This document shows positions 5,701 to 61,475 of a DNA stretch of 64,000 nt, piece after piece (the stretch's first letter is position 1; the number at the start of each line of letters is the position of its first letter). This DNA comes from a virus (Duplodnaviria > Caudoviricetes). The translations under genes and the position numbers were made by a program. The stretch covers positions 1 to 64,000 of IMG/VR virus record IMGVR_UViG_3300014204_000125. One strand, written 5' to 3'. The notes beneath the pieces were generated by a model that made no database searches, was not told the origin of the DNA, and saw only the letters and a program-made list of their open reading frames with translations.

Positions 5701-7256
5701 ATAAAAGTTCCGATAAGCCCCGAAAGAGTCGGAGGCACTGGGTTATAAGTAAATGACTCTTTTGCAATCAATTTGCTGTATTCAAGCGACTCTGTGGTCA
5801 TATTGCCGACGCCCGCAACTATTCTTAAATAATAGTTATTGGTGTCTCCATATTGAATAGCGGACTCGTAAGGGAAGTCGGTTAAAAGCACTGTGTTATG
5901 CCCGGAAAGGGTAATAACGTCTTTCGGATGCCAGGGCGATATCGTGCCAGCCGGATTCGATTTCCACGGCACATGGCAATACACGATTTGATCATCGCTG
6001 GTACGGCAAAACTCGAGGCGATAATCGGTTAGACTCTTTGCCATTATATCGGCGTCCCAGTCGATCTGAATTGGCATATCAAGATCACTTTTTGTATGGG
6101 TGATAGTGACAACTGGAGAATCAAAAACTGCACTCGTATTTACCTTGTTCGAAAACGAGAAAGAAGAGGCGTTCGCAGAAATGTCGAGGGCCCTTACCCC
6201 ATAGACATATGGCACTCCAAGCGTTATGCCTGAGTCTATAAATTCCGTCGGCCAAGGTTTATCATTATAATCGGCTTCCCCTATTTTAGAGTAATTAGCT
6301 ATTCCTGAGTTTGCAAAACCTCTATATATTTCGTACTTATTGATATCCCAGGCCCCATACGCATTCGGATCGGGTCGGCGCCAGGAAACACTAATAAGAT
6401 CCGCTATGTTTGTCGAAATATCAACTGCTCTGACATTCCTAACCGGGTTCGGCGCCGTGTAATCGCCGGCTGTAAAATGGGCTTCATCAGAATCCTCGGA
6501 GACGTTATTCGCGTGGTCGAAGGCTTGCATCTTCAGGGAATACCTTTTCCCGCGCACTAGCCCTTTTATCGGGGCATACCATTTCTGGGATGTATGCAGG
6601 CTCAATCCGCTTTTTAACACCAGAGTTTCCGCATACGCAGTGTCCGCGAGTTCAAAGGGTTTCGTATAAACCTTCATGTACGCGAAGTCGGGATCTTCAT
6701 TCTGTACGTATTCGAGAAGCCCGTGACAGGCATCCCCGAATGAATCTGTACGAACCCCATCGGTTACAACCACAGGGGTTACAGGTTTGTTCGGGATCGT
6801 ATTATCACGCGCGGAAATCGCGAATTGTTCCGATATATTTGAGTTTCCATTCGCATCCACGACTTGAACGTAATAAGAAACAACCTCGGTGGAACTTACT
6901 CCGTAATCTTCGTAATAAAGGGTTTCGCCTCTAGGGATCGTTGCTATTATAGTGCGGCCGCGATATATTACATATTTCTGTCCAAGCCCTTCATAATAAT
7001 GGCCGAGTTCATCGTGATCCACGGGGGTTATCGATATTGCAATCCTGGGCACCCCGTCGTTTGACTTCCTCGTATATTCAACAGATGGCGCAGCGGGGCG
7101 CACCATTTGGTTGAAGCGAGTCTCCTCTTTCCCAATAAAAGAAGGAGAGGATAGCCCATCAATTTCAGAGAGGAGGGGGCCATTCAAACCTTTGTTCTTT
7201 GAGCCCTGTATTTTATTTGATATCTGATTGTCTATTATTTGGGGTAGATTCGGCAT
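2778..7256 (-). CDS. Large tail-tip/central fibre protein with FN3/Ig-like repeats
   Basis: 1492 aa; repeated Y.V.A.D..GN and D.TPP beta-sandwich signatures; distal tail position. Confidence 0.75.
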   Translation of the reverse strand: MPNLPQIIDNQISNKIQGSKNKGLNGPLLSEIDGLSSPSFIGKEETRFNQMVRPAAPSVEYTRKSNDGVPRIAISITPVDHDELGHYYEGLGQKYVIYRGRTIIATIPRGETLYYEDYGVSSTEVVSYYVQVVDANGNSNISEQFAISARDNTIPNKPVTPVVVTDGVRTDSFGDACHGLLEYVQNEDPDFAYMKVYTKPFELADTAYAETLVLKSGLSLHTSQKWYAPIKGLVRGKRYSLKMQAFDHANNVSEDSDEAHFTAGDYTAPNPVRNVRAVDISTNIADLISVSWRRPDPNAYGAWDINKYEIYRGFANSGIANYSKIGEADYNDKPWPTEFIDSGITLGVPYVYGVRALDISANASSFSFSNKVNTSAVFDSPVVTITHTKSDLDMPIQIDWDADIMAKSLTDYRLEFCRTSDDQIVYCHVPWKSNPAGTISPWHPKDVITLSGHNTVLLTDFPYESAIQYGDTNNYYLRIVAGVGNMTTESLEYSKLIAKESFTYNPVPPTLSGLIGTFIGSTNTVNLRWGQLYENTREYFQNNPSYYGKVMGIEAKYFGTNSGESWNSGISVFRNTKNPSAFLYGVWVNAPEDTAPDDDTTYYYGVKAIADRERTPMFKGLWNFYGQKDMEEYYYSPDYTPIAITIEGTLKQPTDCIATGDKQKLNLQWSGTTATRLKEYKLYISDVSAADLNTPDDSQLTWRGRASQIVINKMPDGSQLSAVPKSYYFKLRPVDYRETAGADSVVFSGVTVDAVGPSIDTTTTVPALLPYAIINSATLRVNWMTTDETSNLSEVWGRVTKAGDAAGDWQKTTGLSGGINSGYFIFSGLTTSTWNYEIRALDSAANAGVNSKVFEVDTVQAADPDSIVLTQISKDTLGVQVNYGTLPEHFKTFDLYYRTNSGSWSYLDSHSAVAFSETIPANGYIDTKIIATKLHDAALNSPGAVLSNAVLIDSIAPAFLISDYTSDITADRLLGVGGGSTSAIRVDFGMTDAGAGLDDNSLLASLDAHLGTPFTNSGITYDTSDPHSRTGNYIESGITQGVHSLTFKSIDLAGNYSFTEPKWIEVDIVTPDAPTTPVCYKDGRSVYVSTSSPTQTDNFKEYWWYVNSGSVDTYMQATKDRYLKYTFPADIATQVNFKARQVKRNGVEGDLSSASNSVWIDITPPVLGISAVSNINQYGYTHNSGVDVTFSATDIGGSLVAGYQYSLNGGAWATATSPQSVTLNPAVQSGQTVQIKAIDNAGNEAVAPFSFKYDSIPPITVPTFAALFQTKIRWTWGVATDDNSGVAGYEIRPTDADWGTPGYVYKGEMNEFTTTPTNSGNVTYFAKAFDYADNYSNAAATVTAVNVKPHAVGTISTSSELNGVQFAWDEVTTDENHLATDDIWGYSVRTKIGAGAWSTYSGITTNSFFRSMNASERVQASVTNYIEVLTQNRWGKLSTNSGVANAEPIKVEFVNMGDNPMRFEVWVNSGSGIQTQADNPLFLNLVDGDFKD

Positions 7257-7268
7257 GGAGCCCTCCTG

Positions 7269-10200
7269 TTAGTTAAATAAGAAATTACGAGTGGTTCTGG
7301 CGTTCGAGGCATCGTCCCGATTAAACACGACTGCGGGGGTGCTTCCGATCGATACCGAAATGCAATCGATCCCGAGGGTGGGGAGATAACTCCTGTCGTA
7401 AACTGTACTCGCATATACGTCTTCATTAAACCCGCCCATATAAATAATGGGGTACATTCTCGCGTCATCGGCTTCGGTCGTGAACGTAGTTATATGGCGC
7501 TCCCAGCCGGCTCCCGGGGTGTATGTTATTCCCGAATTCATTGCGAGTCTCCAGACTCCATTCGTTTTCTGGGTTGCGATCGCGAATTTAGGGTTCCATA
7601 AATTAACGAGCTCTGTGCTTTTCAAGTAAGCCGCGAAGCAGTATTCCGTAGAAGCTTTGACCGGGATGGTGTCATTGCTATATATCAGGAAAGGGGTTCT
7701 CGGGGCGTCCGGTTTCCCGTTACTCGAATTTATTGTGATATCGGTACTGTATTTTACGAAACTCGCCCCGACTTTGACCCCGGGGGTAGTCTTGGCGTCC
7801 TTTGTTAAAACCAGCTCAAGAAATGATTTATTATCAAGCGCGCCGCCCGTGGGGGCATACGTGTAATCCAATCTAACAATCTGTTCCGCAGGGCGTGACA
7901 TTGTCATTCCGTACACGTTAGCCCAACTCGTTAAAAGATTTAACTGGGTGGCCTGAAGATTATTCATATAGAATGGTTTTGTGACAGGGGTCCAGCCTTT
8001 CACGACGATCCCGGAATTATTTATCCAGGAATCCAGAACAAAGGGTTTTCCATAATCCGGATTCGGGATCTTCGTCGGGGTTTCCTCTATCCAGAGCCCA
8101 CCATTATTCACGACATTTTTGCCGGCGCTTTTCGTAATATTTACGACCTCGCCGTTGATTAAAAAAGCATTCTTAATCTGGAGTTGATATTTACCTGAAG
8201 GCACATACTGACCCTGGGTGTCCGTATAGTCCCAATTTATGAACTGGACAAGCGCCGGGGTCGTAATCCATCTCGGGGTGTTCGATGTGGCTCCGTCCGC
8301 GCGCAATGCGTTTACGTCTTTTCCCGTATTATCCTGAGCGCAGCAGTCAAGATAAACCTTATCGTTTACATCCTGAACCACATCATTAATAAGGAGATCG
8401 AGAGGCACGGTCAAGAGATCACCGACATGGCCTTCATCCGGGGTCAAATCGCCCCACTGCATTTCGTAGGTATCCACATCAAGCCCGCTATTAACGAGGC
8501 TCTGGGTATATGTGGTTTCAAGATCAGACGCGCCCTGGGCCGAGGTGATGTTGACCAGACTTATTTTCCGAGTCGTGACTTCGACTTGATAATAACTCGG
8601 GGTGGTCAGATTCAAAGGGGTCCCATCCGGGCTCGCGAGCCAGTTGAATTGTCCCTGTCTGAACCAGATATCAAAAGTATTGTTATAAACATAATTTGTT
8701 TTTGAATTCGTAGGATAGAGATATAGTTTATCGACAAGGGCGCCGAATCTCTCTTCGAAATTAATCCCGCAGTCCCATTTCAATCCATTCTCTCTCTTAT
8801 ATACCCCGGGTTCCATTATCGTCTCTTCGATCGGCCATGCGTAGATTTCATTCCGACTTCCCGTGATTCCTTTGGGATATCTCACCTTCATCGCAACTTT
8901 ACGTTTTACTGGAATCGCAAAATTGAAAACACAGTAATGTTTAATCGAATTTATTACGCCAGTATTTGTAAACCCGGAATAGGACTGCACGAGAGAGTTA
9001 TCAGATTTCTTGAATACGTCCATACTCCAGTCGTAAATACCGGGAGGATATAACCCGGAAGGTATCTCGGGCGGCTTCGTATAAGTCTTCGCCGGCGGGA
9101 CCGAGGACAAAGATAATTTGGTATCATACGCGATCGGGGTTTCCGTGGAAGCCACCCCCTGAACCCAGAGTTCGGTTTCCGCGTACATATCATTTTCAAC
9201 ATCGATCAGAGTTAAGCAATCCCCGATTTGAATATACGGATTTCCTAATATTGACGCGCCGGCCTGTCTCGCATTCTTGCGGTGTGTGTCCAATTCACTC
9301 GCGCTCATCCAGTCATTTGTAGCCTTATCGGACACGTTATCCTTGACGATGAGCATTTCTTTTTTGTACCCGATATAATTATAAGGGATGTCGGCCGTGA
9401 AACCTTCGATCTGACAAACAGATAAATCATAGGGAGTATTGTCCGCAAGTTTTGCGTTTATATAAAGTTTTTTTAACGAATATAAAATAGATCCGCCAAT
9501 AGGTTCCAACCTTAACACAAGTCCCGCATTTGTCAAATCGGATTGGACTACCGTGTGGGTTGCCACAGCAGTTATAACGGCGCCATCGGAGACTCCCGAT
9601 ACTGTAATTACCGTACCGAGAGGAGTATTCCCGCTTAGGTATAATATCAGAGTGCGAATATCCGCCAAAATCTCATAGTTCCCAATAATTACTTTATTCG
9701 TTTGGCTCGTTACAAGCGTCTGGTATTTAGTATATTTCCCGTCCATAAGGGAAGAATTGGCATGGGTTAAAGTATCTAGATTGTTTATAACACATGTCAC
9801 GATACTGGCGCCGCCGTGGATTGAATAATTATCCGCACTCTTGGAAAGCAGCGGACGCTGAGACGCCGGCTTGCCGAGAACAATTACACTATTTCTTATT
9901 TCAGACGAGTTATCGATTACATTGTCCGTCCTCATATCGAGACTTGCATTGAATGTCCCCGAAACAGTTTCCTCGTCTGTATTCAAATAAGAAAACCCGT
10001 TGAAATAACAAGTGGTATGGTCGTTAGGATCCATTGCGACAGCCCAAAGGTAGTCGCCCAAGTACGTTGTAGTATCCGAGTTCAATGCGCTGTAAAGTTC
10101 AACCTCCGCGTATTGATACGGCGATAATTCCGGCACCGCTACGTTCGTGGCTACGACTTTCCAATTTCCGTCCTTATAGACTTGGACATTAACTTCACAC

Positions 10201-11411
10201 GCCTCTGTTTTTGTGGCAAGGGATATAAAGCGCCCTTTTATGACTCTTGCATTTGTCAGAGCCGAAATAGAGGGTACACTATCGCATCCCACCTGGTCCG
10301 AAAGTATCCAATACTTCCAACCCCAGACATGATTTTCCTTCGCTTCGACATCGCTGAAATCGTTATTTCCGCCCACCCATGCGTACTGCCGGCATCCCTT
10401 TATTGTGAGACATCCCGTTTCACTGAAAAACATACGAAGCCCAAACTCTTCGCAAAGCACGATCAGGCAATCCCAAAGAGATTTGCCGTAATCAAACTTA
10501 TATTTAGCCTCATCAAGTTTTTCGGAATCAATGCCTTGGTATATCGTCTTTTCAATCCGGGAGGTTTGTGCGGGAACTGAAGGGTCAGTCACAAAACTCG
10601 GGATGGGTCTGCCCGGGACCATATTCGCAACCGTCGTATCCGATGTGACATAGTCAAATATTGTTTTGCTTTTCATGAATGGGTATGATGTAGCGTGTCC
10701 GAGCCGCATCGTGGCGGAATCGTTGAAACTAATGCTTAACCACTGCGCCAGGACTGGGAACTTCGCTTTTATGCAAATATCCCGAATCGCGTCTTTTAAA
10801 AGCCAGTTATCGTATGCCGGGACATAAAGTCCGAGCAACTGATCATTATACAAATTGTCGGGCTGAACCCTTTCCGAATCAGCCGCGGCATCCCGGTATG
10901 AATTTATATCGGGATATCCGTAGTTCAGAGCGTTCATGAATATTGTTGAGAAATCAACGCAATTTATTACGAGTTCATCGGATTCCGCATTCGGCACGAT
11001 GTCATTCACTACCCCCATAAACCTCTGAAGCACAGACGAGTTCTCCGGGATTATTGTGGATGCGTATCCGAAATAAGCCTTGACAAGATATCCTTTCCCG
11101 ATCGTGTGTGCCGTGACAGGCGCGCCGGCGATCGTGGTTCGCGTTGCGTTTACATAATTGTATTCGTAATAGGAAAGCGGAATATGAATCGCGAGAGTTT
11201 TGGCCTGTCCTATCTGTGTGTTCTCTGTCATTGCGAAAGGGAACACTTTGATCATCGCAGGATACTGGCCCGTAGAATTATACACTCCCACATATTCTTC
11301 AAGGGAGCCCGCATATATTTCAAAGTAATAATGAGAGCGCGCTATTTTCGAATAATTGGTAGTATTCAATCCCAGGGTCGCATCTATTATACTTACGTCT
11401 TTCGGTAACAC
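7269..11411 (-). CDS. Baseplate hub (Tal-like) protein with C-terminal carbohydrate-binding-like domain
   Basis: 1380 aa; follows TMP and Dit-like genes; hub-like segment SLWDCLIVLCEEFGLRMFFSETG; C-terminal IPVKASTEYCFAAYLKS...WERHITTFTT resembles a CBM. Confidence 0.65.
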   Translation of the reverse strand: MLPKDVSIIDATLGLNTTNYSKIARSHYYFEIYAGSLEEYVGVYNSTGQYPAMIKVFPFAMTENTQIGQAKTLAIHIPLSYYEYNYVNATRTTIAGAPVTAHTIGKGYLVKAYFGYASTIIPENSSVLQRFMGVVNDIVPNAESDELVINCVDFSTIFMNALNYGYPDINSYRDAAADSERVQPDNLYNDQLLGLYVPAYDNWLLKDAIRDICIKAKFPVLAQWLSISFNDSATMRLGHATSYPFMKSKTIFDYVTSDTTVANMVPGRPIPSFVTDPSVPAQTSRIEKTIYQGIDSEKLDEAKYKFDYGKSLWDCLIVLCEEFGLRMFFSETGCLTIKGCRQYAWVGGNNDFSDVEAKENHVWGWKYWILSDQVGCDSVPSISALTNARVIKGRFISLATKTEACEVNVQVYKDGNWKVVATNVAVPELSPYQYAEVELYSALNSDTTTYLGDYLWAVAMDPNDHTTCYFNGFSYLNTDEETVSGTFNASLDMRTDNVIDNSSEIRNSVIVLGKPASQRPLLSKSADNYSIHGGASIVTCVINNLDTLTHANSSLMDGKYTKYQTLVTSQTNKVIIGNYEILADIRTLILYLSGNTPLGTVITVSGVSDGAVITAVATHTVVQSDLTNAGLVLRLEPIGGSILYSLKKLYINAKLADNTPYDLSVCQIEGFTADIPYNYIGYKKEMLIVKDNVSDKATNDWMSASELDTHRKNARQAGASILGNPYIQIGDCLTLIDVENDMYAETELWVQGVASTETPIAYDTKLSLSSVPPAKTYTKPPEIPSGLYPPGIYDWSMDVFKKSDNSLVQSYSGFTNTGVINSIKHYCVFNFAIPVKRKVAMKVRYPKGITGSRNEIYAWPIEETIMEPGVYKRENGLKWDCGINFEERFGALVDKLYLYPTNSKTNYVYNNTFDIWFRQGQFNWLASPDGTPLNLTTPSYYQVEVTTRKISLVNITSAQGASDLETTYTQSLVNSGLDVDTYEMQWGDLTPDEGHVGDLLTVPLDLLINDVVQDVNDKVYLDCCAQDNTGKDVNALRADGATSNTPRWITTPALVQFINWDYTDTQGQYVPSGKYQLQIKNAFLINGEVVNITKSAGKNVVNNGGLWIEETPTKIPNPDYGKPFVLDSWINNSGIVVKGWTPVTKPFYMNNLQATQLNLLTSWANVYGMTMSRPAEQIVRLDYTYAPTGGALDNKSFLELVLTKDAKTTPGVKVGASFVKYSTDITINSSNGKPDAPRTPFLIYSNDTIPVKASTEYCFAAYLKSTELVNLWNPKFAIATQKTNGVWRLAMNSGITYTPGAGWERHITTFTTEADDARMYPIIYMGGFNEDVYASTVYDRSYLPTLGIDCISVSIGSTPAVVFNRDDASNARTTRNFLFN

Positions 11412-11424
11412 CTTTTCGCTCCTT

Positions 11425-11802
11425 TTACGACTGCGAAATTATTCTGACTTTCATGGCTATCCCCCAGAGGATTTCCCCGTCTTGTGATGTCTTTAGATGT
11501 TTCGCAATAAATTCGATTATTTGGAGAGTGTAATCGATTCCAGACTCCTGATCCTGAAACACAACATTCATAAATTTAGGGATGCTTTCTAAAAGGGTTT
11601 TATTGGTCTCGTCCGTGAGTTTCCACTGGATCGTTCCAACCTCATACGCCTCCCGGGCAACATAGGAATCATTCGACCCAATCCCCTTCGGCATCGTGTG
11701 TTTGACCGAATTGTACTTGGGGCGAAGATCTTTTGTCGTGGGGCCGTACACAGCGACTTGGTTCGCAGGGGCCCACTGGAATATCCATGTGCGCGCGCTC
11801 AT
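11425..11802 (-). CDS. Small tail protein (Dit-like by position)
   Basis: Start refined to the ATGA overlap with the upstream stop; synteny only. Confidence 0.5.
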   Translation of the reverse strand: MSARTWIFQWAPANQVAVYGPTTKDLRPKYNSVKHTMPKGIGSNDSYVAREAYEVGTIQWKLTDETNKTLLESIPKFMNVVFQDQESGIDYTLQIIEFIAKHLKTSQDGEILWGIAMKVRIISQS

Positions 11803-12200
11803 ATCAACACCCGATTCCATTTCAGCGTTATAGAATACGCCGTTTTATTGCCCTTCAAAGTTAAACCCTCGAGATGCGAAATCGTGGAATCGATTATTTC
11901 TATGCGATAGTTTAATCCGGAATTATAGTATGCCCCATAGAACCCAGAGAAGCCCATTTTTGTACCTCGTGTAAAAGAAGCTAGCGTATTATATAAAGAT
12001 GTCCCGGACTGTACTAAAGGCCAGATTGCCGAGTCTATGATGTTCATTTTAATCCCACTCGGGCTCACCCATTCGTTTGTGAAGTAGACAGGTTTCCCGA
12101 AACCGGGTTTAAATAAACCATATTCCGGCTCCGATGATTCGATCGAAGCCGGACCTAATGGCAATCGGGTTGTATTGAAGTAGAATTTCGCTCTATTCAT
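11799..12200 (-). CDS. Small tail protein (Dit-like by position)
   Basis: 133 aa directly after TMP. Confidence 0.5.
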   Translation of the reverse strand: MNRAKFYFNTTRLPLGPASIESSEPEYGLFKPGFGKPVYFTNEWVSPSGIKMNIIDSAIWPLVQSGTSLYNTLASFTRGTKMGFSGFYGAYYNSGLNYRIEIIDSTISHLEGLTLKGNKTAYSITLKWNRVLI

Positions 12201-12201
12201 A

Positions 12202-15200
12202 TCAGCCTACATTTTTACTCGGGGTTGTGAAGGTAGCCAAGTTTCTCTGATACTCCGCGACCCCATCGCTTATCGATCTCGCGACCTGGGAAGAATTGGC
12301 TCCCGAACCCACCTGAATAGTAAGTGTTCCTATCTGTACCGCCGAGGCATTTGCTGTGGCCTGAGCCTTTGGCATTTCGAAAGCAGTGGGCGCATTGAAT
12401 ACGCCTTCACTGATCTTCATAAGTGCGAGAGTATTTCTATCCAGTGCCTCTGTGTTTTTGGTCACGGGATAGAACTCTCTCTGTGGGGGCGGGGGTGGGG
12501 CTTCATCGTCTCCGCCTCCACCGAACAGGCCACCCAGAACCCCGATGATCGCGCCCGGGATTCCACCCGACATAAATCCAGTAAGCCCGCCCGCGAGCGC
12601 ACCTGCGCCTTTAGATTTCGTGGCTTTCCCTACCCCGTATCCCACGAGCCCGCCGGTGAGTGTTCCCATGATTCCTCCACCACCGCCGAATAGTCCACCC
12701 GATCCGGATTCTGCCGCAGATGATAATGAATTGGCTCCGCCTTTTGTGAACCAACTTCCCGCATCAGCGCCGCCCCCGCCACCGAATGCGCTCATAAGCG
12801 AACTCCCGATCGAACCCATACTGCCACCCGAGGCCGCATTTACGACATTGAATACAGTGCTACCGCCGGCGCCAATGAAACTACCCACTGAAGAATTTCC
12901 TGCCGCAGAGAACATAGACTTGCCGCCCGAGAACAATCCGCCGAGAGCCGGGACTGCACCCGCTAACGACATCGAGTTTGTTGATTTGGATCCACCGCCG
13001 CCGAACAGACTTCCGAATATCCCGCTTCCTCCGCCGGCTCCGAATAGCCCACTTAAACCGCCGTCAACAAGTGCGCCCGCGATCTTGTCGAAGATTTTCT
13101 TTATGACTGTATTCCCGATGTCTTCGAGAACCTTTTTCCATTTATTCGTGGATTCATTTACTTTATCGAGACTTTCCTTGGTCTGTTTAATCTGGTCGTT
13201 TACCTGACGGTACTTATCGCGAGCCGCGTTTATTTTGTCAATGTTTCCCGTTTGTTCCGCACCCGCGACATCCCCGGAAGCCATGCTCGCATCGCCCTGA
13301 AGTTTTGTAAGCTGTGCGTTTATCTCGTCGCGCTTTTTGTTCTTCTCGTCCCGCTCTTTCATTAGGGTTATCGGGTTAAAGAGTTCATTCAGTATTCCCG
13401 AAACCTTATTGATCGCTGCGAGTCTCTGGGCGGCTTCCCCCTGTGCCTGAATGAGTTGGAGCCTTTCCTTTTCTGACTCCACGACTTCCTTCATCTGTAG
13501 AAGATCGGTATTCGTAGTTTCAAGTTTCTCAATGGCTCTCGCTATGCCTTGTTTTGCCGCCTCGTCAGTATCCACGGCAAGCATCTTAGCTTCGAGCCCC
13601 GCTTTTATTTCCTGAACTTTAATCGCATACTCGCGCTCTTTGAAGGCAATGAGCTCTTTCTGCTGGCGCAACTGGAATTTAACATCATCCGAGGGATCGT
13701 TGACACTTCCCCCGCGACGGGTTGACTCGAGTTTCTGCTGGAACGCGAAGCGATTCTCCGTGGCTTTTTTGGCCGCGGTTTGCTGTCTCTCAAGGTTCTC
13801 TTGGATATCCACTTTGATCCAGCCGGGGGTTGCCGCTTTTTCCTCTTCCATTTTGATCCGGGCCGTGTCCGACATGCCCTGATATTTCTTCCTATTCTCA
13901 TCGGACAATCCCTTATCCCCGGCGTAGCGAGCGTACATCTCCATCTCGCGCTGGTAGTCTGCGGTCTTCCGGATCGATTTCATCTCTTGACTGGAGAGGT
14001 ATTTATTGACTTCTTTCTCAAGATAGACTTGCTGTTCTTTGAGGACGTTATATTTAGCCTGCTCGGCGTTGATCCTGGCCTGTGCGTCGAGCCCTTCCAT
14101 GCGCTCGGCTTTGCGGGCTGCGCCACCGCCTCCAGACGCCTTAGTTTTCGAGTATTCAATTAAAGATTTGCCATACAAAGCCAACTCTCTTGCTTCGGAG
14201 TTGCTTTCTGAATTTGCTCCCCCTGCTTTCTCTAAAGCAGACATAACGCCTTCGTACACGACTCGAGCTTTTGCTTTCTCTTCGATTTGAGGATTGGTTA
14301 AGGTTCCGCCTTGTTTTTTCTGCAAAGCATCAAATGATTCCATCGTTTTTTGAGCTTCTTTGGCCTTTGGAACCCCAATATCAATAATTTCTTGGATCTT
14401 TTCTTTTATATTTGGCTGGGCGGAAACCGTTTTTTTTGTGCCCATTAAATATGTAAGGGCTGTGTCCAAAATACCAGCGCCCTTACCGAGTCCCATAAAC
14501 TGAGCCCCGATATTTATTATCCAATTCTGTCCTGTCAAATTAGACAGAGAAGTGATCAAAGAGTTTATTGCAGATGTAAAAAGATTTATTGAATTTGGGA
14601 TTAACTGTAAAGTATTATAAAATTCAGTCAATTTCTCTTTTGTAACAAGCGTTTTACCGCTCGCATCGACCATCCCCGCGCTATATGCGTAATACGCAAG
14701 ATTAATATCCGACAGTTCTTTTTTTGTGTCAGCAATTGCATCGGCAAGTTTCATTTGTTCTTCTACTCTGCCTGTTCTTCCCGCCCTATCGTATTCGTCA
14801 TTTTGCTTTACAAGAAGCGCATTAATTTTATCCATATTTTCTTGTATAGACATATAGGTGGAAAGGGACTCTCCCATAAATGAACCCGAAGCCCGAGTGT
14901 TTAACCCGCCCTTTTCTGCGTTTTCCTGTATTCGAGCCATTGTGAGTTCTATCGTATTCGAAATACTTTCGGTCAAAGGACCAGCCTGTTTGGGTTTAAT
15001 ATCCGACATTACTCCTATAATGTTTTTTATGAGCCCCACCGCATCATCTTTTACTTTTCCGGCGAGAACGGCAAATTGAGCCGCGTCTTGCTTCAAGAAA
15101 ACAGAAAGCGGGCCCTCTTTAATTTCCTTTTCTTTTTCAAATAAACGAGTTAATTCCAAATACCTTTCCGAATCAATTCCCCAATCGGCAGCTAAAGTCG

Positions 15201-19974: not shown

Positions 19975-21215
19975 GTGAACTGCTTTAACTAAAAAATTTA
20001 AGAGCGTTGGGTTTCTTTGCCTTGCGAACTCGCAACGACTCCACCCGTTTTTGTTTAGAGTCCGACTGCGTTCCGCAACCAGACATTAAATTTATTCCTT
20101 GTTTCTTAATATTAATTGCAGCGTTAATGTCCCTGTCGTGAATTGTTTTACAGACAGGACAAGTCCATGTCCTTGTATTTAAAGGGAGATCTTCAAGAAC
20201 AAACCCGCAATCACTACACATTTTACTTGATGGGAAGAATCGATCAACTTGAATGAAGACTCGATTATTCCAATCCGATTTATATTTGAACTGGCGAATT
20301 AGTTCTCCCCAAGAACAATTAGATATGGACTTTGCTAAACTATGATTTTTTAACATACTAACTACCGATAAGTCTTCGGAAACAACCACTTGGTTTTCGT
20401 GAATTATTTCATGACTTATTTGATGTAGATGGTTTTCCCGAATATTCTTGATTTTGTTATGGATTCGGGCCAACTTAAATACCTGTTTTTTTCTTGAGCT
20501 GCTTCCTTTCTTTTTTTGGAAATCTGTCTTTGATTAAATTTTAATTTTTTCTCATATTTCTGATAAACTTTAAGGTTTTCATATTTCTTTCCGTCAGAAG
20601 TAATTACTAAGTCTTTAATCCCTAAGTCAAGCCCAACAGTATTCCCGTTCTGAGGGAGAACTTCATATTCTGTTTCGCAAGTAATTGAAACGAAGTATTG
20701 GTTACAAGGGTTCTTTGATATTGTGGCAAATAACATCTTTCCTGTTAATGGACGATGAAGAACTATTTCAATCCCCGATTTTAATTTAGGGATAAATAAT
20801 TTATTTTCTTTGACTTTAAAAGATTGGGGAATAGCAAACGATTGTTTATCCCGTTTGGACTTAAACTGGGGAAACATCGCTTTTTTTTTAAAGAACTTGA
20901 TATAAGCAGAGTCAAGATATTTCAATGACTGCAAAATAGACTGAGAGTTTACTTCTTTAAGCCATTTAAATTCTTCTGTTCCCTTTATGATAATTAGTTG
21001 TTTAGCATTATCGTAATAATTTAAGGTTTTCTTTTTCTCTTTTTTGTTATTTAAATAGTAGGATTTACGTTGATTTAAAAAATAATTATAAACGAAACGA
21101 CAACACCCAAAGTGTTTAATTAAAAAAACTTGTTGTTCTTTTTTCGGGTATATCCTATATTTAAAAGTTTTAATTACTATTTTTTTCATAGTTTAATATA
21201 TCATTTGTTTATAAG
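19975..21215 (-). mobile_element. TnpA-less IS200/IS605 (IS1341-like) element
   Basis: AT-rich insert between tail terminator and tube genes; ends ...GCAGTTCAC at 19975, a typical right end; left end approximate. Confidence 0.75.
19985..21189 (-). pseudogene. tnpB: TnpB RNA-guided nuclease split by a 1-nt frameshift
   Basis: N-terminal KYRIYP...HFGCCRFVYN, RuvC GLDLG / VSEDL / DRDINAAINI, Zn finger CSDC..CPVC; frame break in the A7 run at 20511-20517. Confidence 0.9.
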
Positions 21216-27544: not shown

Positions 27545-27780
27545 CCTGGTTTACCAAATTTGCAAAAAATTAACCTTGCACATTTGGAAGGAGACCTTTC
27601 GTTCTCCTGACGTGAACTTCATTTCTGTTTCACCTGCCTTTGGGTCAGGCTGAATTCCACCGCATAGGCGACCAATTCTCACCTACGACTACCTTCCGGC
27701 TTTGCGACACCGGATTCTGACCTCTTGCCTATTTACATAGGAACCGGGTCAACCGCAGTGAGCGGAGGCTTGAGGTAACA
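27545..27780 (-). ncRNA. Putative omegaRNA/right-end RNA of the TnpB-related element
   Basis: Hairpins CCGG-UGUCGCAAAG-CCGG, CGUAGGUGA..UCGCCUAUG, GCCU..AGGC, GGAGA-ACGAAAGG-UCUCC directly 3' of the ORF. Confidence 0.5.
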
Positions 27781-28914
27781 GTCTTTTAAATAATCCAAAG
27801 CCTTGTATCCAATATTCTTGGAATACTTTCTTCCTTCAAGGTTCCAGTATCCCAATTTTTTGGGGTCTTTGGTTATCTTAAAAGTCTGGCGTTCTCTCAA
27901 ACCCATTCCTCTTCGCGCTATCACTAACGCAGCGGATTCATGGGAACTCAACGAGAACATACCTCGGTATTTGAGTTGTCCTAATATAGAAGTAAATGCG
28001 GGATCAACCTCTTCTACTAAAACTCCGTGTTTAATCCCTTGTATTTTAATTGCCTCGGTTAATTTGCGATAGACAAAGTTATGTTGCATTCTCTTAAATT
28101 TTTTGGAATATTTATTTTTATTGTTTTCTTTAAAATTTAATTTTTCTATTATTATCGGCTTATTTTTATTTAAAGCTTGAACAACAAGAAGTTTAGCCAT
28201 TGTTTGAATTTCATGGTCTCTTTTGTTTTTTTGAGCAAACTGAATTTTTTTAAATTTAGTAGAGTAATGGTTTAAAAGATTGCCCGCTTCATTAGTTTCA
28301 GATATGGCAAGTCTATCAGGATTTGTGTCAACTCCTACTGTGCCTTTAGTATTTAAAATAACTGACAATTTTGGGGGTTCAACTTCAAAGGTTATCATTA
28401 TTTTAAATTTGTTCTTTCGATATACAAGCCTGGCATCATAACAAGCCGAACTCCATTCCTTAAATTTATCAGAAACAAATACCAAACCCTCTAACCACTT
28501 TCCTCTTGCTAAGGGTTCATTTACAAAGATTTTATTTTTTTCTATGCGAATATTGGGATTCCCTTTTTTTGATTTTTCTCCCATAGAATACAACTGGGAA
28601 TTACGTTTCTGCGTCCATTGCTCTTTAGTTATACTCTCTTTTCGAAATCTTTTCCACGTATATTTTCCGCCAAAAATAACATGTTCTGATTCTATCCCAG
28701 AGGCAAGCGTGCAGGCGTCAGAGATATAACGTCCATTTAAATGCTTCATAAAATTAATTTTTACATATTTTTTAATTGCATTCCCTTTCTGTTCGTATTT
28801 GTGAATAGCCTGATATGCGGAATGAATGGCAGAACATTGAGCCTTCATTAGCTCAAGAATTCTGGTCTTGATTTCAGGTTTAAAATAAACTTCTCCGTGT
28901 ATTACTTTCCGCAT
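27733..28914 (-). CDS. IS200/IS605 accessory TnpB-related protein (no Zn finger)
   Basis: GNPNIRI, GVDTN, IIIEKL, VDPAFTS, HESAALVIARRGMG. Confidence 0.8.
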   Translation of the reverse strand: MRKVIHGEVYFKPEIKTRILELMKAQCSAIHSAYQAIHKYEQKGNAIKKYVKINFMKHLNGRYISDACTLASGIESEHVIFGGKYTWKRFRKESITKEQWTQKRNSQLYSMGEKSKKGNPNIRIEKNKIFVNEPLARGKWLEGLVFVSDKFKEWSSACYDARLVYRKNKFKIMITFEVEPPKLSVILNTKGTVGVDTNPDRLAISETNEAGNLLNHYSTKFKKIQFAQKNKRDHEIQTMAKLLVVQALNKNKPIIIEKLNFKENNKNKYSKKFKRMQHNFVYRKLTEAIKIQGIKHGVLVEEVDPAFTSILGQLKYRGMFSLSSHESAALVIARRGMGLRERQTFKITKDPKKLGYWNLEGRKYSKNIGYKALDYLKDCYLKPPLTAVDPVPM

Positions 28915-56929: not shown

Positions 56930-57257
56930 TATCTTCCTCCCGTTTTATTTTCTTTGAGGTCTGTTTGATTATCTTTTTAAGCCAAGCGATTTCCTTGAGT
57001 TTCGTTTCCTCGTTCTTCCCGTAGCGCTCTATCAACCCCATCTTCGCCAGTTTCTCTGCGACATAGACCTCGAGTATGCCAGCGCATCGTTTACAAATAC
57101 AGCACGAGGGCCAATATTCGAAAGAAGTCTCTTGATTTAAACCCGAGGTTAAAGAGAATCGGCCGTCATCCTTTTCCTTTTCGCAGACATCGCAGATATC
57201 GATTTCTTTATCCACACGTTTATAAACTTTGACGGAGGTTTTGACTATTTTCTTCAT
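56922..57257 (-). CDS. Hypothetical Zn-binding protein
   Basis: CDVC...CKRC. Confidence 0.55.
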   Translation of the reverse strand: MKKIVKTSVKVYKRVDKEIDICDVCEKEKDDGRFSLTSGLNQETSFEYWPSCCICKRCAGILEVYVAEKLAKMGLIERYGKNEETKLKEIAWLKKIIKQTSKKIKREEDND

Positions 57258-57748
57258 TCGTAAACCTCCACGTAATATTTATATTTACTCGCGAAATCGA
57301 GGAGTAAAGGTTTGACTTCATTTTCCCAATTAAGCCCGCCTAATCCGCACCCAATTTTTGGGAAAGCAATCGATGTTACTCCAGTGCAACCCAATTTCTT
57401 ACCTTCAGGACTTACGTGGTGCAGTATTTTTGCAAGCCCTCTTTTTATAAGTTCAATATCGGATTTCTCACGCCAATCCCATTTTGTAGGGAACAAACAA
57501 ACCGAATAATCCTTGTCTTGTTTATAAATATTATAATGGACCTTGGTGTAATCTTTTACCCCCTTTTCCAACTTCATAGTCACCAAACAAGACTTATAAA
57601 AATCGTTCAATCTTTTACCGAAAAGATCTTTGAAAGTTTTAGCCAATCCCGCACCCATAACCCCGACAAGATTCGTGGGGCATACCAACATATCGCATTT
57701 CGATTTAAAAATATCCCCGCCCTTTATTATTTCAAGATTATCCATCAT
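57254..57748 (-). CDS. Macrodomain ADP-ribosylhydrolase (DarG/TARG1-like)
   Basis: GDIF..NLVGVMGAGLA..FPTKWDWR..SIAFPKIGCGLGGLNW. Confidence 0.9.
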   Translation of the reverse strand: MMDNLEIIKGGDIFKSKCDMLVCPTNLVGVMGAGLAKTFKDLFGKRLNDFYKSCLVTMKLEKGVKDYTKVHYNIYKQDKDYSVCLFPTKWDWREKSDIELIKRGLAKILHHVSPEGKKLGCTGVTSIAFPKIGCGLGGLNWENEVKPLLLDFASKYKYYVEVYE

Positions 57749-57999
57749 TTTCCTCCCAATATTGCATCAGATTCTTCCCCGTACCTCCGGACCACGCACT
57801 CCCGATTCAGTTTGCCTTCCTTGCCGATTATCTTGAGTTTGGCAATCGGAAGCGCTTCTAAAACGCCTTTGCAAAACCCTTCGCAATATATGGCAAGTCT
57901 ATTCTCACAGGACTCAACCCGGCGCCATTCCGAATCAAATTCGTTATAAACTTCCACCCGATATGACCGGCTATTTTTTGTCATTAAACCTTTCCTCAA
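57745..57999 (-). CDS. Hypothetical protein
   Basis: Coupled ORF. Confidence 0.5.
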   Translation of the reverse strand: MRKGLMTKNSRSYRVEVYNEFDSEWRRVESCENRLAIYCEGFCKGVLEALPIAKLKIIGKEGKLNRECVVRRYGEESDAILGGK

Positions 58000-58611: not shown

Positions 58612-59238
58612 TTATACAACAGTCTTCCAATCCGCGGCGATGGCGCCCGTGGATCTATAACTCGACACGGCACAGCAATACCCGGAGAAAGCATCGCCCA
58701 TTCCTTTGGAATCCCCGGAAAACGACATGCAAGCCGACTTAGATATCCCGATCGATGAACCCGCAATCATCGCGTCCTGATTCGCAGCGAGAAAAACGAA
58801 CTGCCATTTGTAAACATCCGTCTGGTGAGATATCATTTCGAAGACCTGTTCGCGTGTGAATTTTCTGGAAGCGTTTTCTTCCCCGTCGGTGAGGATTGTC
58901 ACGATGACTTTCTCGGGGCGCTCGTCTTCCTTCATAGCCGCAATCCTGGCCCCGATTCGGGTTACGGTTTCCCCGATCGCATCGTAAAGCGCGGTGCCGC
59001 CGTTGGGGACATAGGTTTCGGTGTCAAGCCTCTTGACTTCACCTACGAGAGCGTTCTCGCATACAATTTTGAGATCCCCATCAAAGGAAAAAAGAACGAG
59101 GTCCATCCTGGCTTCCCCGGGTTCTTTCTGCTGGGCTTCGAGAAAAGTATTGAATCCGCCGATCGCGTCGTTGCGGATGGATTCCATTGATCCTGATTTG
59201 TCGATGATAGAAACAATTAAGGTGAGATCTTTTTTCAT
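58612..59238 (-). CDS. vWA-domain protein
   Basis: MIDAS DKSGSM, GGTALYDA, LTDGEENAS. Confidence 0.9.
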   Translation of the reverse strand: MKKDLTLIVSIIDKSGSMESIRNDAIGGFNTFLEAQQKEPGEARMDLVLFSFDGDLKIVCENALVGEVKRLDTETYVPNGGTALYDAIGETVTRIGARIAAMKEDERPEKVIVTILTDGEENASRKFTREQVFEMISHQTDVYKWQFVFLAANQDAMIAGSSIGISKSACMSFSGDSKGMGDAFSGYCCAVSSYRSTGAIAADWKTVV

Positions 59239-59800: not shown

Positions 59801-59828
59801 TTTGCACCCCACATTTATTTAATACCTA

Positions 59829-59857
59829 ACTCTAACACAAAAAATATAAAATGTCAA
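59829..59857 (-). promoter_or_regulatory. sigma70-type promoter
   Basis: TTGACA-17-TAGAGT with TGTG. Confidence 0.7.
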
Positions 59858-60052
59858 TCCAATATAAACAAAAATCACCTTCTCCTATCTCGCGGCGTAT
59901 CCTCGGGCAACACACCCAAAACAATGCGATAAAGAGAAAGCGATCCCAAAGTTCCATCGGGTCCGAAGGAAACCAACACCGGGTTGATATCCGGCATAAC
60001 CCTTCGCCTCTTGCAAAACCCCGGGCGAATTTCTTTCATAGCTTACGAATAA

Positions 60053-60081
60053 AGTGTACCAGAAATCAATCCAGAAGTAAA
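60053..60081 (-). promoter_or_regulatory. sigma70-type promoter directly after the terminator
   Basis: TTTACT-17-TACACT with TGn. Confidence 0.55.
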
Positions 60082-60082
60082 C

Positions 60083-60110
60083 AAAAAAAAGTCCTGAATT
60101 TCTTCAAGAC
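60083..60110 (-). terminator. Intrinsic terminator of the ncRNA operon
   Basis: GTCTTGAA-GAAA-TTCAGGAC followed by T8. Confidence 0.85.
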
Positions 60111-60165
60111 TTCTTTTGCCGGGTGTACGCCCGAGGTAGTCGCAGAACCACCTTAAAATATAAGG

Positions 60166-60257
60166 AGGAGCTAGTCCGGGATGAAGATTTGCGCCTATCC
60201 ACACTTTGCGCTGTCTCCGTTTTACAAGGGTGGACCAAGTTCCCGGATCAAGCCCCT
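60166..60257 (-). ncRNA. Unidentified structured RNA (long closing stem plus T-loop-like arm)
   Basis: AGGGGCU/AGCUCCU, UCCGGGA/UCCCGGA, GUCCAC/GUGGAU, AGG-CGCAAAU-CUU. Confidence 0.5.
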
Positions 60258-60275
60258 ACTCTTTGATATTAAAGA

Positions 60276-60420
60276 CCCCAAGGGAGGGTTCGCGCCTCAT
60301 CTTCCCGGTGCGGTGGTTATCCCACAATACGAACTTAATCGGACGCACTTTTTACACCACGCGTGGCGGGTTTGCTCTTTCTTTCAGCCTTGCAAGACCT
60401 TTCATTGAGCTACCTCAGAG
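60276..60420 (-). ncRNA. tRNA-like RNA with expanded D loop and anticodon-arm insert
   Basis: CUCUGAGG/CCUUGGGG acceptor-like stem, UA-GCUC..GAGC D stem, CCCG/CGGG, GAGG-CGCGAAC-CCUC T-like arm. Confidence 0.45.
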
Positions 60421-60425
60421 AGATT

Positions 60426-60835
60426 TGGTGGAGGTGTGGGAAATTGCATCCCAGTCCGAAGATCTTTCCCTGTCTTGATTTTTACACGCTTATCCCTTTT
60501 ACCCGCGGGAAGGGTGTCGGTTTTGAGGCGTTACCCTGTGTCATGGTAGAACAACCGATGCCCCATGATCCACTTGCGTTAGATTCTTTACGCGGATAAC
60601 TCCGTTGGCAAGTTCGCAGAGTTTTTACGCGGGCGTCCCCTTTCGGTTCGGCCGTGGGTTCACAATTAAGCGGCTAACATAACAGGAGCGAGTTCTTTTA
60701 CGAACAAACCTCTGACAATATTGTCCACCTGATCGAGAACTGAATTAGTTTTGGCAATTAGTGTTTGTGCATTAAGGAAGCACGCCTTTGCGTGACAAGA
60801 TAGTTCGTTATCTCCGTCGAAACTAGTTCACCCCC
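60426..60835 (-). ncRNA. ssrA: tmRNA (410 nt, one piece)
   Basis: 5' GGGGGUGAACUAGUUUCGAC; 3' UGGGA-UGCAAUU-UCCCA CACCUCC ACCA with a G3.U pair; H2 pairings (GGAGAU/AUCUUC, CACGC/GCGUG); PK1 (AAGG/CCUU, GUGC/GCAC); UAAUU-GCC resume; tag ends LAA-stop (60666-60755). Confidence 0.95.
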
Positions 60836-60845
60836 GAAATATTTG

Positions 60846-60945
60846 TTGCGGCGCTTCAAGTCTTGGGTGATCATGCCAGACGAGCTTCGGGAGATCCAGA
60901 GAAAAGAGGGCCCTCTAATATCCCTTTGGGATTCCCATACCGCAA
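60846..60945 (-). ncRNA. Unidentified structured RNA upstream of tmRNA
   Basis: UUGCGGU/GCCGCAA closing stem enclosing several hairpins. Confidence 0.4.
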
Positions 60946-61129
60946 TTAAATTTTATAGGGGAGCCAAATCGAGTTGAATAATTTCTCTGGCGGTACTAAG
61001 GTCAAAGGTCATATTCGGTTGGACATGGATCCCCATTTTCAAAAAACATATGGATAACCGGCCGGGAACTCAAGTGGATAAATCCCTGGGGCGGGACATT
61101 TCTTCTGAGCCCCGAACGATTACATTCCA

Positions 61130-61158
61130 AGTATAGCATTAATGTTAGATGGTGTCAA
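61130..61158 (-). promoter_or_regulatory. Strong sigma70-type promoter of the ncRNA operon
   Basis: TTGACA-17-TATACT with TGn. Confidence 0.85.
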
Positions 61159-61475
61159 GCCTTTTTCTTTTTCATGAACTCAAAGGGCGTCTTCAGCCTT
61201 TTCCAGTATTTACTCGTATCCGCGAGTTTGATCTGGGATTCGTTTTCGAGCCGCATGCCGCCCCAAGTGATCAGGTGCGCCTCGAACATCGCGTTGACTT
61301 TATCCTCTATGGTTTTGATCATCGAGAGATCCAGCATGTAATACACGGGTTCTTTGCGTGGGTCTTTAGGATTTTCCGGTTTGATCTTAGGAACCTTAAC
61401 TTTTTTATTGAGAAGTTTATTAAGTCTCGCTGCTTCCGCCGCATTTTCTTTTTGGGTTCCCATTCTTGCTTTCAT
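61155..61475 (-). CDS. Basic hypothetical protein
   Basis: 106 aa, AAGGAG RBS. Confidence 0.6.
   Translation of the reverse strand: MKARMGTQKENAAEAARLNKLLNKKVKVPKIKPENPKDPRKEPVYYMLDLSMIKTIEDKVNAMFEAHLITWGGMRLENESQIKLADTSKYWKRLKTPFEFMKKKKA

Follow-up and report, generated by a model that had tools for sequence, protein, structure and literature searches.

The question raised by this locus is what a gene-dense phage keeps in about 1 kb of DNA free of long open reading frames, and whether the sequences on both sides of the tmRNA found there are RNA genes in their own right. The window analysed here is the first 64 kb (64,000 nucleotides) of the IMG/VR record IMGVR_UViG_3300014204_000125. The whole record is 115,335 bp in length with 123-bp direct terminal repeats, and it belongs to an uncultured phage that looks to be of the tailed and virulent type, with a tape-measure protein of 1,773 aa and a terminase that is recognised only weakly. 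All genes between about 2.8 and 64 kb are carried by the minus strand. On this strand the initial annotation had described a tmRNA flanked by several new structured RNAs, the whole being bracketed by a promoter and a terminator. Our analysis shows a non-coding unit that has a tmRNA at its core and is served by a promoter and a terminator of its own. It is a known kind of gene, namely a phage-encoded tmRNA, and the flanks as separate new RNAs are not supported by the tests run. The elements of the unit, in the order of transcription, are as follows.

61130..61158, minus strand: sigma-70-type promoter, TTGACA-17 nt-TATACT with a TG extended -10, 11/12 consensus matches
60836..61123, minus strand: 5' leader of about 288 nt, with hairpin A, hairpin B and a branched stretch
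60426..60835, minus strand: one-piece tmRNA (ssrA) of 410 nt, RF00023
60666..60755, minus strand: tag reading frame within the tmRNA, resume codon GCC at 60755, UAA stop at 60668-60666
60118..60425, minus strand: 3' trailer of 308 nt, with a multibranch stretch, a 92-nt hairpin and two short hairpins
60084..60117, minus strand: intrinsic terminator T1, 15-bp stem, 4-nt loop and U-run, z -4.7

The bracketed 1-kb non-coding unit with its tmRNA is real, because the promoter, T1 and a full-length tmRNA are all found and credible ORFs are absent. The earlier statement that no sense-strand ORF of at least 60 aa occurs over about 1,040 nt holds: the ORF-free stretch extends from 59813 to 61154 (1,342 nt) and is the only real sense-strand gap of at least 400 nt in the 64-kb leftward arm, a listed gap at 1-2777 being left out as a gene that runs off the end of the record. 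The near-consensus promoter and the terminator are likewise confirmed, with 11/12 matches at 61158-61130 and T1 at 60117-60084, and they span about 1,040 nt. Sites with at least 11/12 promoter matches number only eight on both strands of the 115-kb genome. Other promoters of the TTGACA/TG type are located on the same strand at 64026, 59857, 56298 and 29528, and the minus-strand sites bearing the TG sit ahead of gene blocks. Since the sites are few in the genome and the TG-bearing ones precede gene blocks, this promoter class is, judging from its pattern of occurrence, probably real. From the position of the promoter at 61158-61130, the transcription start would lie near 61123. The upstream gene, of 106 aa, has its TGA stop codon inside the -35 hexamer of this promoter, and the terminator scan shows no minus-strand terminator between that gene and the promoter.

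The tmRNA named in the initial annotation is borne out by the covariance model RF00023, which scores 92.1 bits against a gathering score of 47 (E 1.6e-34) and is matched over model positions 1-374, all 374 of them. The acceptor stem has 7 bp, in which 5' GGGGGUG pairs with CACCUCC and is followed by ACCA; the third pair is G-U (G3:U70), and the 3' end has a discriminator A and an encoded CCA. The tag consists of 29 codons (AKTNSVLDQVDNIVRGLFVKELAPVMLAA) with the C-terminus MLAA and then UAA, and the Rfam alignment puts the resume consensus just ahead of GCC at 60755 with high posterior probability. The tag is unusually long and ends as a canonical degron does. The T-arm has a 5-bp T-stem and a variant loop, UGCAAUU, with G where U55 is expected. 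Probably because of this loop, ARAGORN missed the tmRNA at its default threshold, and it accepted the gene with -ps as low-scoring; the alternative tag given by ARAGORN -ps (VNPRPNRKGTPA) was marked 'not identified' and is unconvincing. The same T-loop is also found in a bona fide permuted tmRNA of 117 bits in an unrelated viral contig (L005), and from its presence in so high-scoring a tmRNA we take UGCAAUU to be a natural variant of the T-loop. The PK1-PK4 region is of the right length and is aligned with low posterior probability and several non-canonical pairs, PK2-PK4 being weakly aligned. The tmRNA has a folding z of -1.36, and the global fold of the transcript lacks its acceptor helix.

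Compared with bacterial one-piece tmRNA (RF00023), the gene has the tRNA-like domain with G3:U70, the long P2 helix, the T-arm and the CCA end, the resume codon after a UAAUU context and a tag ending LAA, and differs in that the posterior probability of the alignment to the model is low for PK2-PK4. At its 5' end, the E. coli ssrA precursor is only a few nucleotides longer than the mature RNA, whereas the leader and trailer here are much longer. In E. coli, RNase P generates the mature 5' end of the tmRNA while endo- and exonucleases form the 3' end, and by analogy the phage tmRNA would be matured by the same nuclease route. Most phages carrying a tmRNA carry tRNA sets too. Unlike in these, ARAGORN detects no tRNA gene in the whole 115-kb genome. 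A tmRNA phage without any tRNA seems uncommon. Further differences from other phage tmRNAs are that the gene stands alone in a 1-kb non-coding unit, with a leader of about 290 nt and a trailer of about 310 nt, that it has no sequence match in INPHARED or IMG/VR, that its tag has 29 residues and that its variant T-loop is missed by ARAGORN. On the other hand, a complete tmRNA in a virulent-looking phage is also known from cluster C mycobacteriophages, Streptomyces BE2 phages and the Methylophilales phage Melnitz, and the likeness extends to the sigma-70-type (early) promoter ahead and to the reliance on host SmpB. SmpB (PF01668) has no match in the phage at E up to 1; a missing phage SmpB is usual for phage tmRNAs and is no argument against the identity of the tmRNA. 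A tmRNA gene is present in about 2.3% of sequenced phages, one of which has it immediately after an early promoter; as to its role, it has been proposed that it maintains the function of hijacked ribosomes or that it marks proteins for degradation (PMC9004378). In Melnitz, a glutamine riboswitch (glnA RNA motif) is attached to the tmRNA in the same transcript (PMC9004378). The Melnitz tmRNA with this motif is two-piece, while the one here is one-piece, with neither a glnA motif nor any other Rfam riboswitch; actually, no Rfam family besides tmRNA is found in the whole 115,335-bp genome. A further comparison is with ROOL (RF03087) and GOLLD (RF01998), large ornate RNAs of phages that are non-coding, measure a few hundred nucleotides and have tRNA-type genes beside them; neither family matches the unit at E up to 10, and there are no tRNAs here.

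We then come to the two flanks, about which the initial annotation had made its strongest claims. It had divided them into self-contained folded units separated by short AU-rich linkers, resembling a processed tRNA operon, and had read them as several novel RNAs made from one polycistronic transcript, with a role in translation or as defence decoys. The segments analysed here are listed below with their folding z-scores.

61052-61123, minus strand: hairpin A of the leader, starting at the predicted transcription start, z -3.4
60946-61035, minus strand: hairpin B of the leader, rod-like, z -3.1; the antisense strand folds equally well
60846-60945, minus strand: branched stretch of the leader, z -0.60
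60276-60420, minus strand: multibranch stretch of the trailer, weakly closed, z -0.27
60166-60257, minus strand: 92-nt hairpin of the trailer, z -2.2
60118-60165, minus strand: two short hairpins of the trailer, z -1.85

Taken as a whole, the leader (z -1.35) and the trailer (z -0.91) are ordinary. Two hairpins of the leader and one of the trailer appear to stand out, only modestly, and their z-scores are inflated because the boundaries of all three (61052-61123, 60946-61035 and 60166-60257) were hand-picked by eye. The supposed folded units were not borne out as more than chance, the two largest, taken with the boundaries of the initial annotation, having z-scores of -0.60 and -0.27 and the density of structure being at the genome average: in a control with RNALfold and z-scores on both strands of the whole genome, local structures with z of -3 or below make up 172 nt of the unit versus a genome mean of 222 ± 159 per 1,080 nt. 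In agreement with this, the terminator region and hairpin A are the sole peaks of a sliding-window scan. The sense and antisense strands give equivalent folds, with -82 versus -84 kcal/mol for the leader and -99 versus -92 for the trailer, and the full 1,040-nt transcript folds into one interleaved domain that is not modular, with about 47 expected pairs crossing the boundary between leader and tmRNA. AU-rich linkers are not enriched, with four in the unit versus 5.9 ± 4.1 per 1.1 kb genome-wide, and the idea of linkers as punctuation between RNAs was rejected. The one mildly positive count is that of perfect palindromes of at least 8 nt, which number 10 in the unit versus 4.3 ± 2.5 for the genome, about half of them inside the tmRNA. 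These thermodynamic tests are weak either way, since the genuine tmRNA fails them too; by the fold predictions, the visual impression of units appears to be not above chance, and real structure may exist.

The Rfam search that had been proposed for the flanks gave no family. When the 1.5-kb region as a whole and each flank alone were searched against Rfam 15 at E up to 10, nothing credible was found in the flanks, and the leader had zero matches. The best flank scores are those of BjrC68 (16.4 bits versus a cut-off of 39), a two-hairpin sRNA model whose match is the terminator itself, and of alpha_tmRNA (15.8 versus 50). The likeness to a processed tRNA operon fails as well, with no tRNA in the phage by ARAGORN, no match of the tRNA model RF00005 in either flank at E up to 10 and junk calls only from ARAGORN -ps70. 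Several more specific candidates were tried and rejected: a ToxI-like repeat array, neither flank having any direct or tandem repeat; tRNA mimics or a tRNA-like start of the trailer, which have no model support; a Y-RNA/Ro-type module, the TROVE domain being not found in the phage; a decayed smpB upstream of the tmRNA, with no SmpB trace; and a complementarity of 12/13 nt between leader and tmRNA, about 0.6 such pairs being expected by chance in the region by our own estimate. For the polycistronic set of novel RNAs, positive evidence is thus missing on every line followed here: Rfam families, an excess of structure, an asymmetry between strands, repeats and homologues.

The search for homologues covered INPHARED, IMG/VR, JGI and GTDB and found none. 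As to conservation of the flanks, its absence can therefore be stated in a weak sense, there being nothing to compare. In detail, positions 59900-61300 have no blastn match among the INPHARED phages, two flank motifs are absent from IMG/VR, and patterns of the 5' and 3' ends of the tmRNA retrieve from IMG/VR only unrelated permuted tmRNAs. Two scans of JGI metagenomes for patterns of the unit gave nothing. Among GTDB genomes, two of Chloroflexota and one of Pelagibacter share only the first 22 nt of the tmRNA, which are universal, and the whole 1.3 kb has no match in 401 Chloroflexota genomes. The neighbouring genes are equally isolated. Neither IMG/VR nor a set of 5.8 billion proteins contains a relative of the upstream 106-aa neighbour, and the downstream 101-aa neighbour retrieves, from 1.8 billion representatives, itself and one chance-level match (E 3.8e-4, over a 19-residue stretch of a 1,712-aa protein). 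A side observation concerns the Anaerolineae MAG contig JAIOHO010000772.1, in which 126 nt at 6318-6443 fit the tmRNA model end to end. This match has 51.9 bits, just over the cut-off, and its first 22 nt are the same as in the phage tmRNA; by its sequence it may be a truncated or miniature tmRNA-like gene.

The phage itself is, by terminase identity, very isolated: its terminase has at most 23% identity to that of any cultured phage, and only four relatives are found among 5.8 billion proteins, the best being 41% identical. The nearest relative reached through the terminase is IMGVR_UViG_3300004241_000001 (hereafter G001), which is 115,414 bp in length, has terminal repeats too, and has head, tail, glycosyltransferase and replication genes in common with the phage at 22-54% identity. 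The tmRNA unit is absent from G001 by covariance model (best 10 bits), by nhmmer to any part of the unit, by blastn and by gene order. Since neither G001 nor the searched collections have a counterpart, the unit is, so far as sequence comparison tells, a lineage-specific acquisition. G001 has a single tRNA-Gln at 57724-57796. In addition, near its divergent-transcription region, two stretches of G001 (9386-10815 and 11359-12430) are ORF-free on both strands.

With moderate confidence, we propose that the unit is the phage's own ssrA gene, transcribed autonomously as a non-coding unit, with the flanks as a long precursor leader and trailer. Host RNA polymerase would start at the strong extended -10 promoter and stop at T1, so that the primary transcript would have about 1,040 nt, and read-through from upstream early genes would probably add to it. 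Host RNase P would cut at G1 (60835), and host endo- and exonucleases would trim to the encoded CCA (60426), so that the 410-nt tmRNA is freed. It would then be charged by host AlaRS through G3:U70 and work with host SmpB and EF-Tu; host factors would be needed because the phage encodes no SmpB and no tRNA. During infection, stalled ribosomes would be rescued and a 29-residue degron ending LAA would be added. The 288-nt leader and the 308-nt trailer would most likely be precursor segments and not independent RNA genes, and their few hairpins would probably serve stability or processing, for example as a stem-loop protecting the 5' end or as entry sites for RNase III or RNase E. Counting against this precursor reading are the 288 nt of leader, far more than the E. 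coli ssrA precursor has, the three flank hairpins with z from -2.2 to -3.4 and the palindromes at about twice the genome level, and a gene-dense phage would be expected to lose 630 nt of useless spacer. The silence of the flank tests is weak evidence for it, since the tmRNA is silent in them as well.

The same observations can be read for one or more flank segments being independent novel structured RNAs, cut from the pre-tmRNA and acting in translation, RNA repair or host defence, with 60166-60257, 61052-61123, 60946-61035 or the whole trailer of about 300 nt as candidates. This reading, the main alternative, is possible and, in our view, doubtful. It survives because 630 nt free of ORFs, kept in a strong promoter-terminator unit, are odd in a dense genome, because three hairpins are moderately stable (z -2.2 to -3.4), with palindromes enriched, and because there is a precedent in the glutamine riboswitch on the tmRNA of phage Melnitz (PMC9004378); the phage also invests in RNA repair elsewhere, with RtcB and a Macro-domain protein. 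However, the flanks have no Rfam match, the two largest units are no better than shuffled sequence (z -0.60 and -0.27), the density of structure is at the genome average with no strand asymmetry and no modularity in the full-length fold, the z-scores that do stand out are inflated by hairpin boundaries chosen by eye, and no look-alike is found in INPHARED, IMG/VR, JGI metagenomes or GTDB genomes. An extended form, which we hold to be unlikely, is that leader and trailer each contain a new class of RNA of about 90-300 nt, which would share the transcript of the tmRNA and be freed by the same nucleases of the host. With RtcB and the Macro-domain protein as partners, these RNAs would make up a toolkit to repair the translation apparatus or to counter host defence, e.g. 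by acting as decoys for those host ribonucleases or toxins whose target is tmRNA or tRNA.

Two further readings deal with the flanks as something other than RNA genes. It is quite improbable that the leader is a cis-regulatory element setting the amount of tmRNA, whether an attenuator, a riboswitch-like switch or the target of a phage antiterminator. The candidate would be hairpin A, which lies at the predicted transcription start, is the most stable element of the leader (z -3.4) and is followed after 6 nt by UUUUUU (61046-61041); by eye, an alternative GGGGC/GCCCC pairing competes with the helix of minimum energy, and the Melnitz riboswitch is again an example of such an element linked to a tmRNA (PMC9004378). 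Against this, hairpin A is not called by the terminator scan, its U-run being 6 nt off and the base of its stem AU-rich, and the leader has neither a match to a riboswitch family nor comparative support. Very improbable is that the flanks encode micropeptides, the candidates being a 17-codon ORF at 60405-60352 in the trailer and an ORF of 26-29 codons at 61042-60953 in the leader. The 17-codon ORF has GAGG 7 nt upstream, a plausible Shine-Dalgarno motif and spacing, but an ORF of this length is expected by chance. All other small ORFs are without a ribosome-binding site, those of the leader having no Shine-Dalgarno motif while the motifs of the neighbouring genes are strong. No small ORF of the unit, on either strand, has a Pfam or PHROGs match, and with a purine content of 0.47 the leader lies about 2 sd under the coding arm (0.54 ± 0.036).

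Phage tmRNAs are a known but rare class for which no role in infection has yet been agreed. Here they have a clean test case, in the form of a stand-alone unit with a strong early-type promoter in a phage without tRNAs or SmpB. The unusually long tag adds to the interest, as does the presence of an RtcB RNA ligase and a Macro-domain protein in the same genome. If the flanks proved to be stable RNAs, they would add, as a possibility only, to the hints that phages pack RNAs around tmRNA and tRNA genes.

Several genes elsewhere in the genome are worth recording. The RtcB RNA ligase is full-length (PF01139, 373 bits) and is encoded at 87739-88944 on the plus strand of the phage genome, beyond the window, and the Macro-domain protein is encoded at 57254-57748 of the window; together with the tmRNA, they suggest that the phage invests in repair of the translation apparatus. 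About 850 nt downstream of the tmRNA terminator, with orphan genes on either side, the minus strand encodes at 58612-59238 a 208-aa vWA-domain protein of the YegL type, which has thousands of bacterial homologues at up to 58% identity. This neighbour is widespread and is of no use as a marker. Within the structural gene block, two transposase-like genes (PHROG transposase families) are located on the minus strand at 20416-21189 and 27733-28914, with one PHROG match at E 3e-67; should their insertion sequence turn up in a bacterial genome, it might point to the host.

Finally, the non-coding DNA continues beyond T1, where the following features are located.

59858..60083, minus strand: post-terminator non-coding stretch of 226 nt, ending just ahead of the next promoter
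about 59866-59960, minus strand: second terminator-like hairpin (T2), branched, about 95 nt, G-U-rich, with a U-run after it

A 21-nt direct repeat follows both T1 and T2 (60066-60086 and 59854-59874), and a weak promoter-like sequence, TTGATT-18-TAAGCT, can be read by eye after T1. The stretch has a local z of -4.5. Its sense strand folds with -73 kcal/mol (z -2.1, with 24 G-U among 77 pairs) versus -42 for the antisense strand. From these predicted folds, 59858-60083 may act as a back-up terminator in tandem with T1, or may give a small RNA (about 170 nt) of its own.
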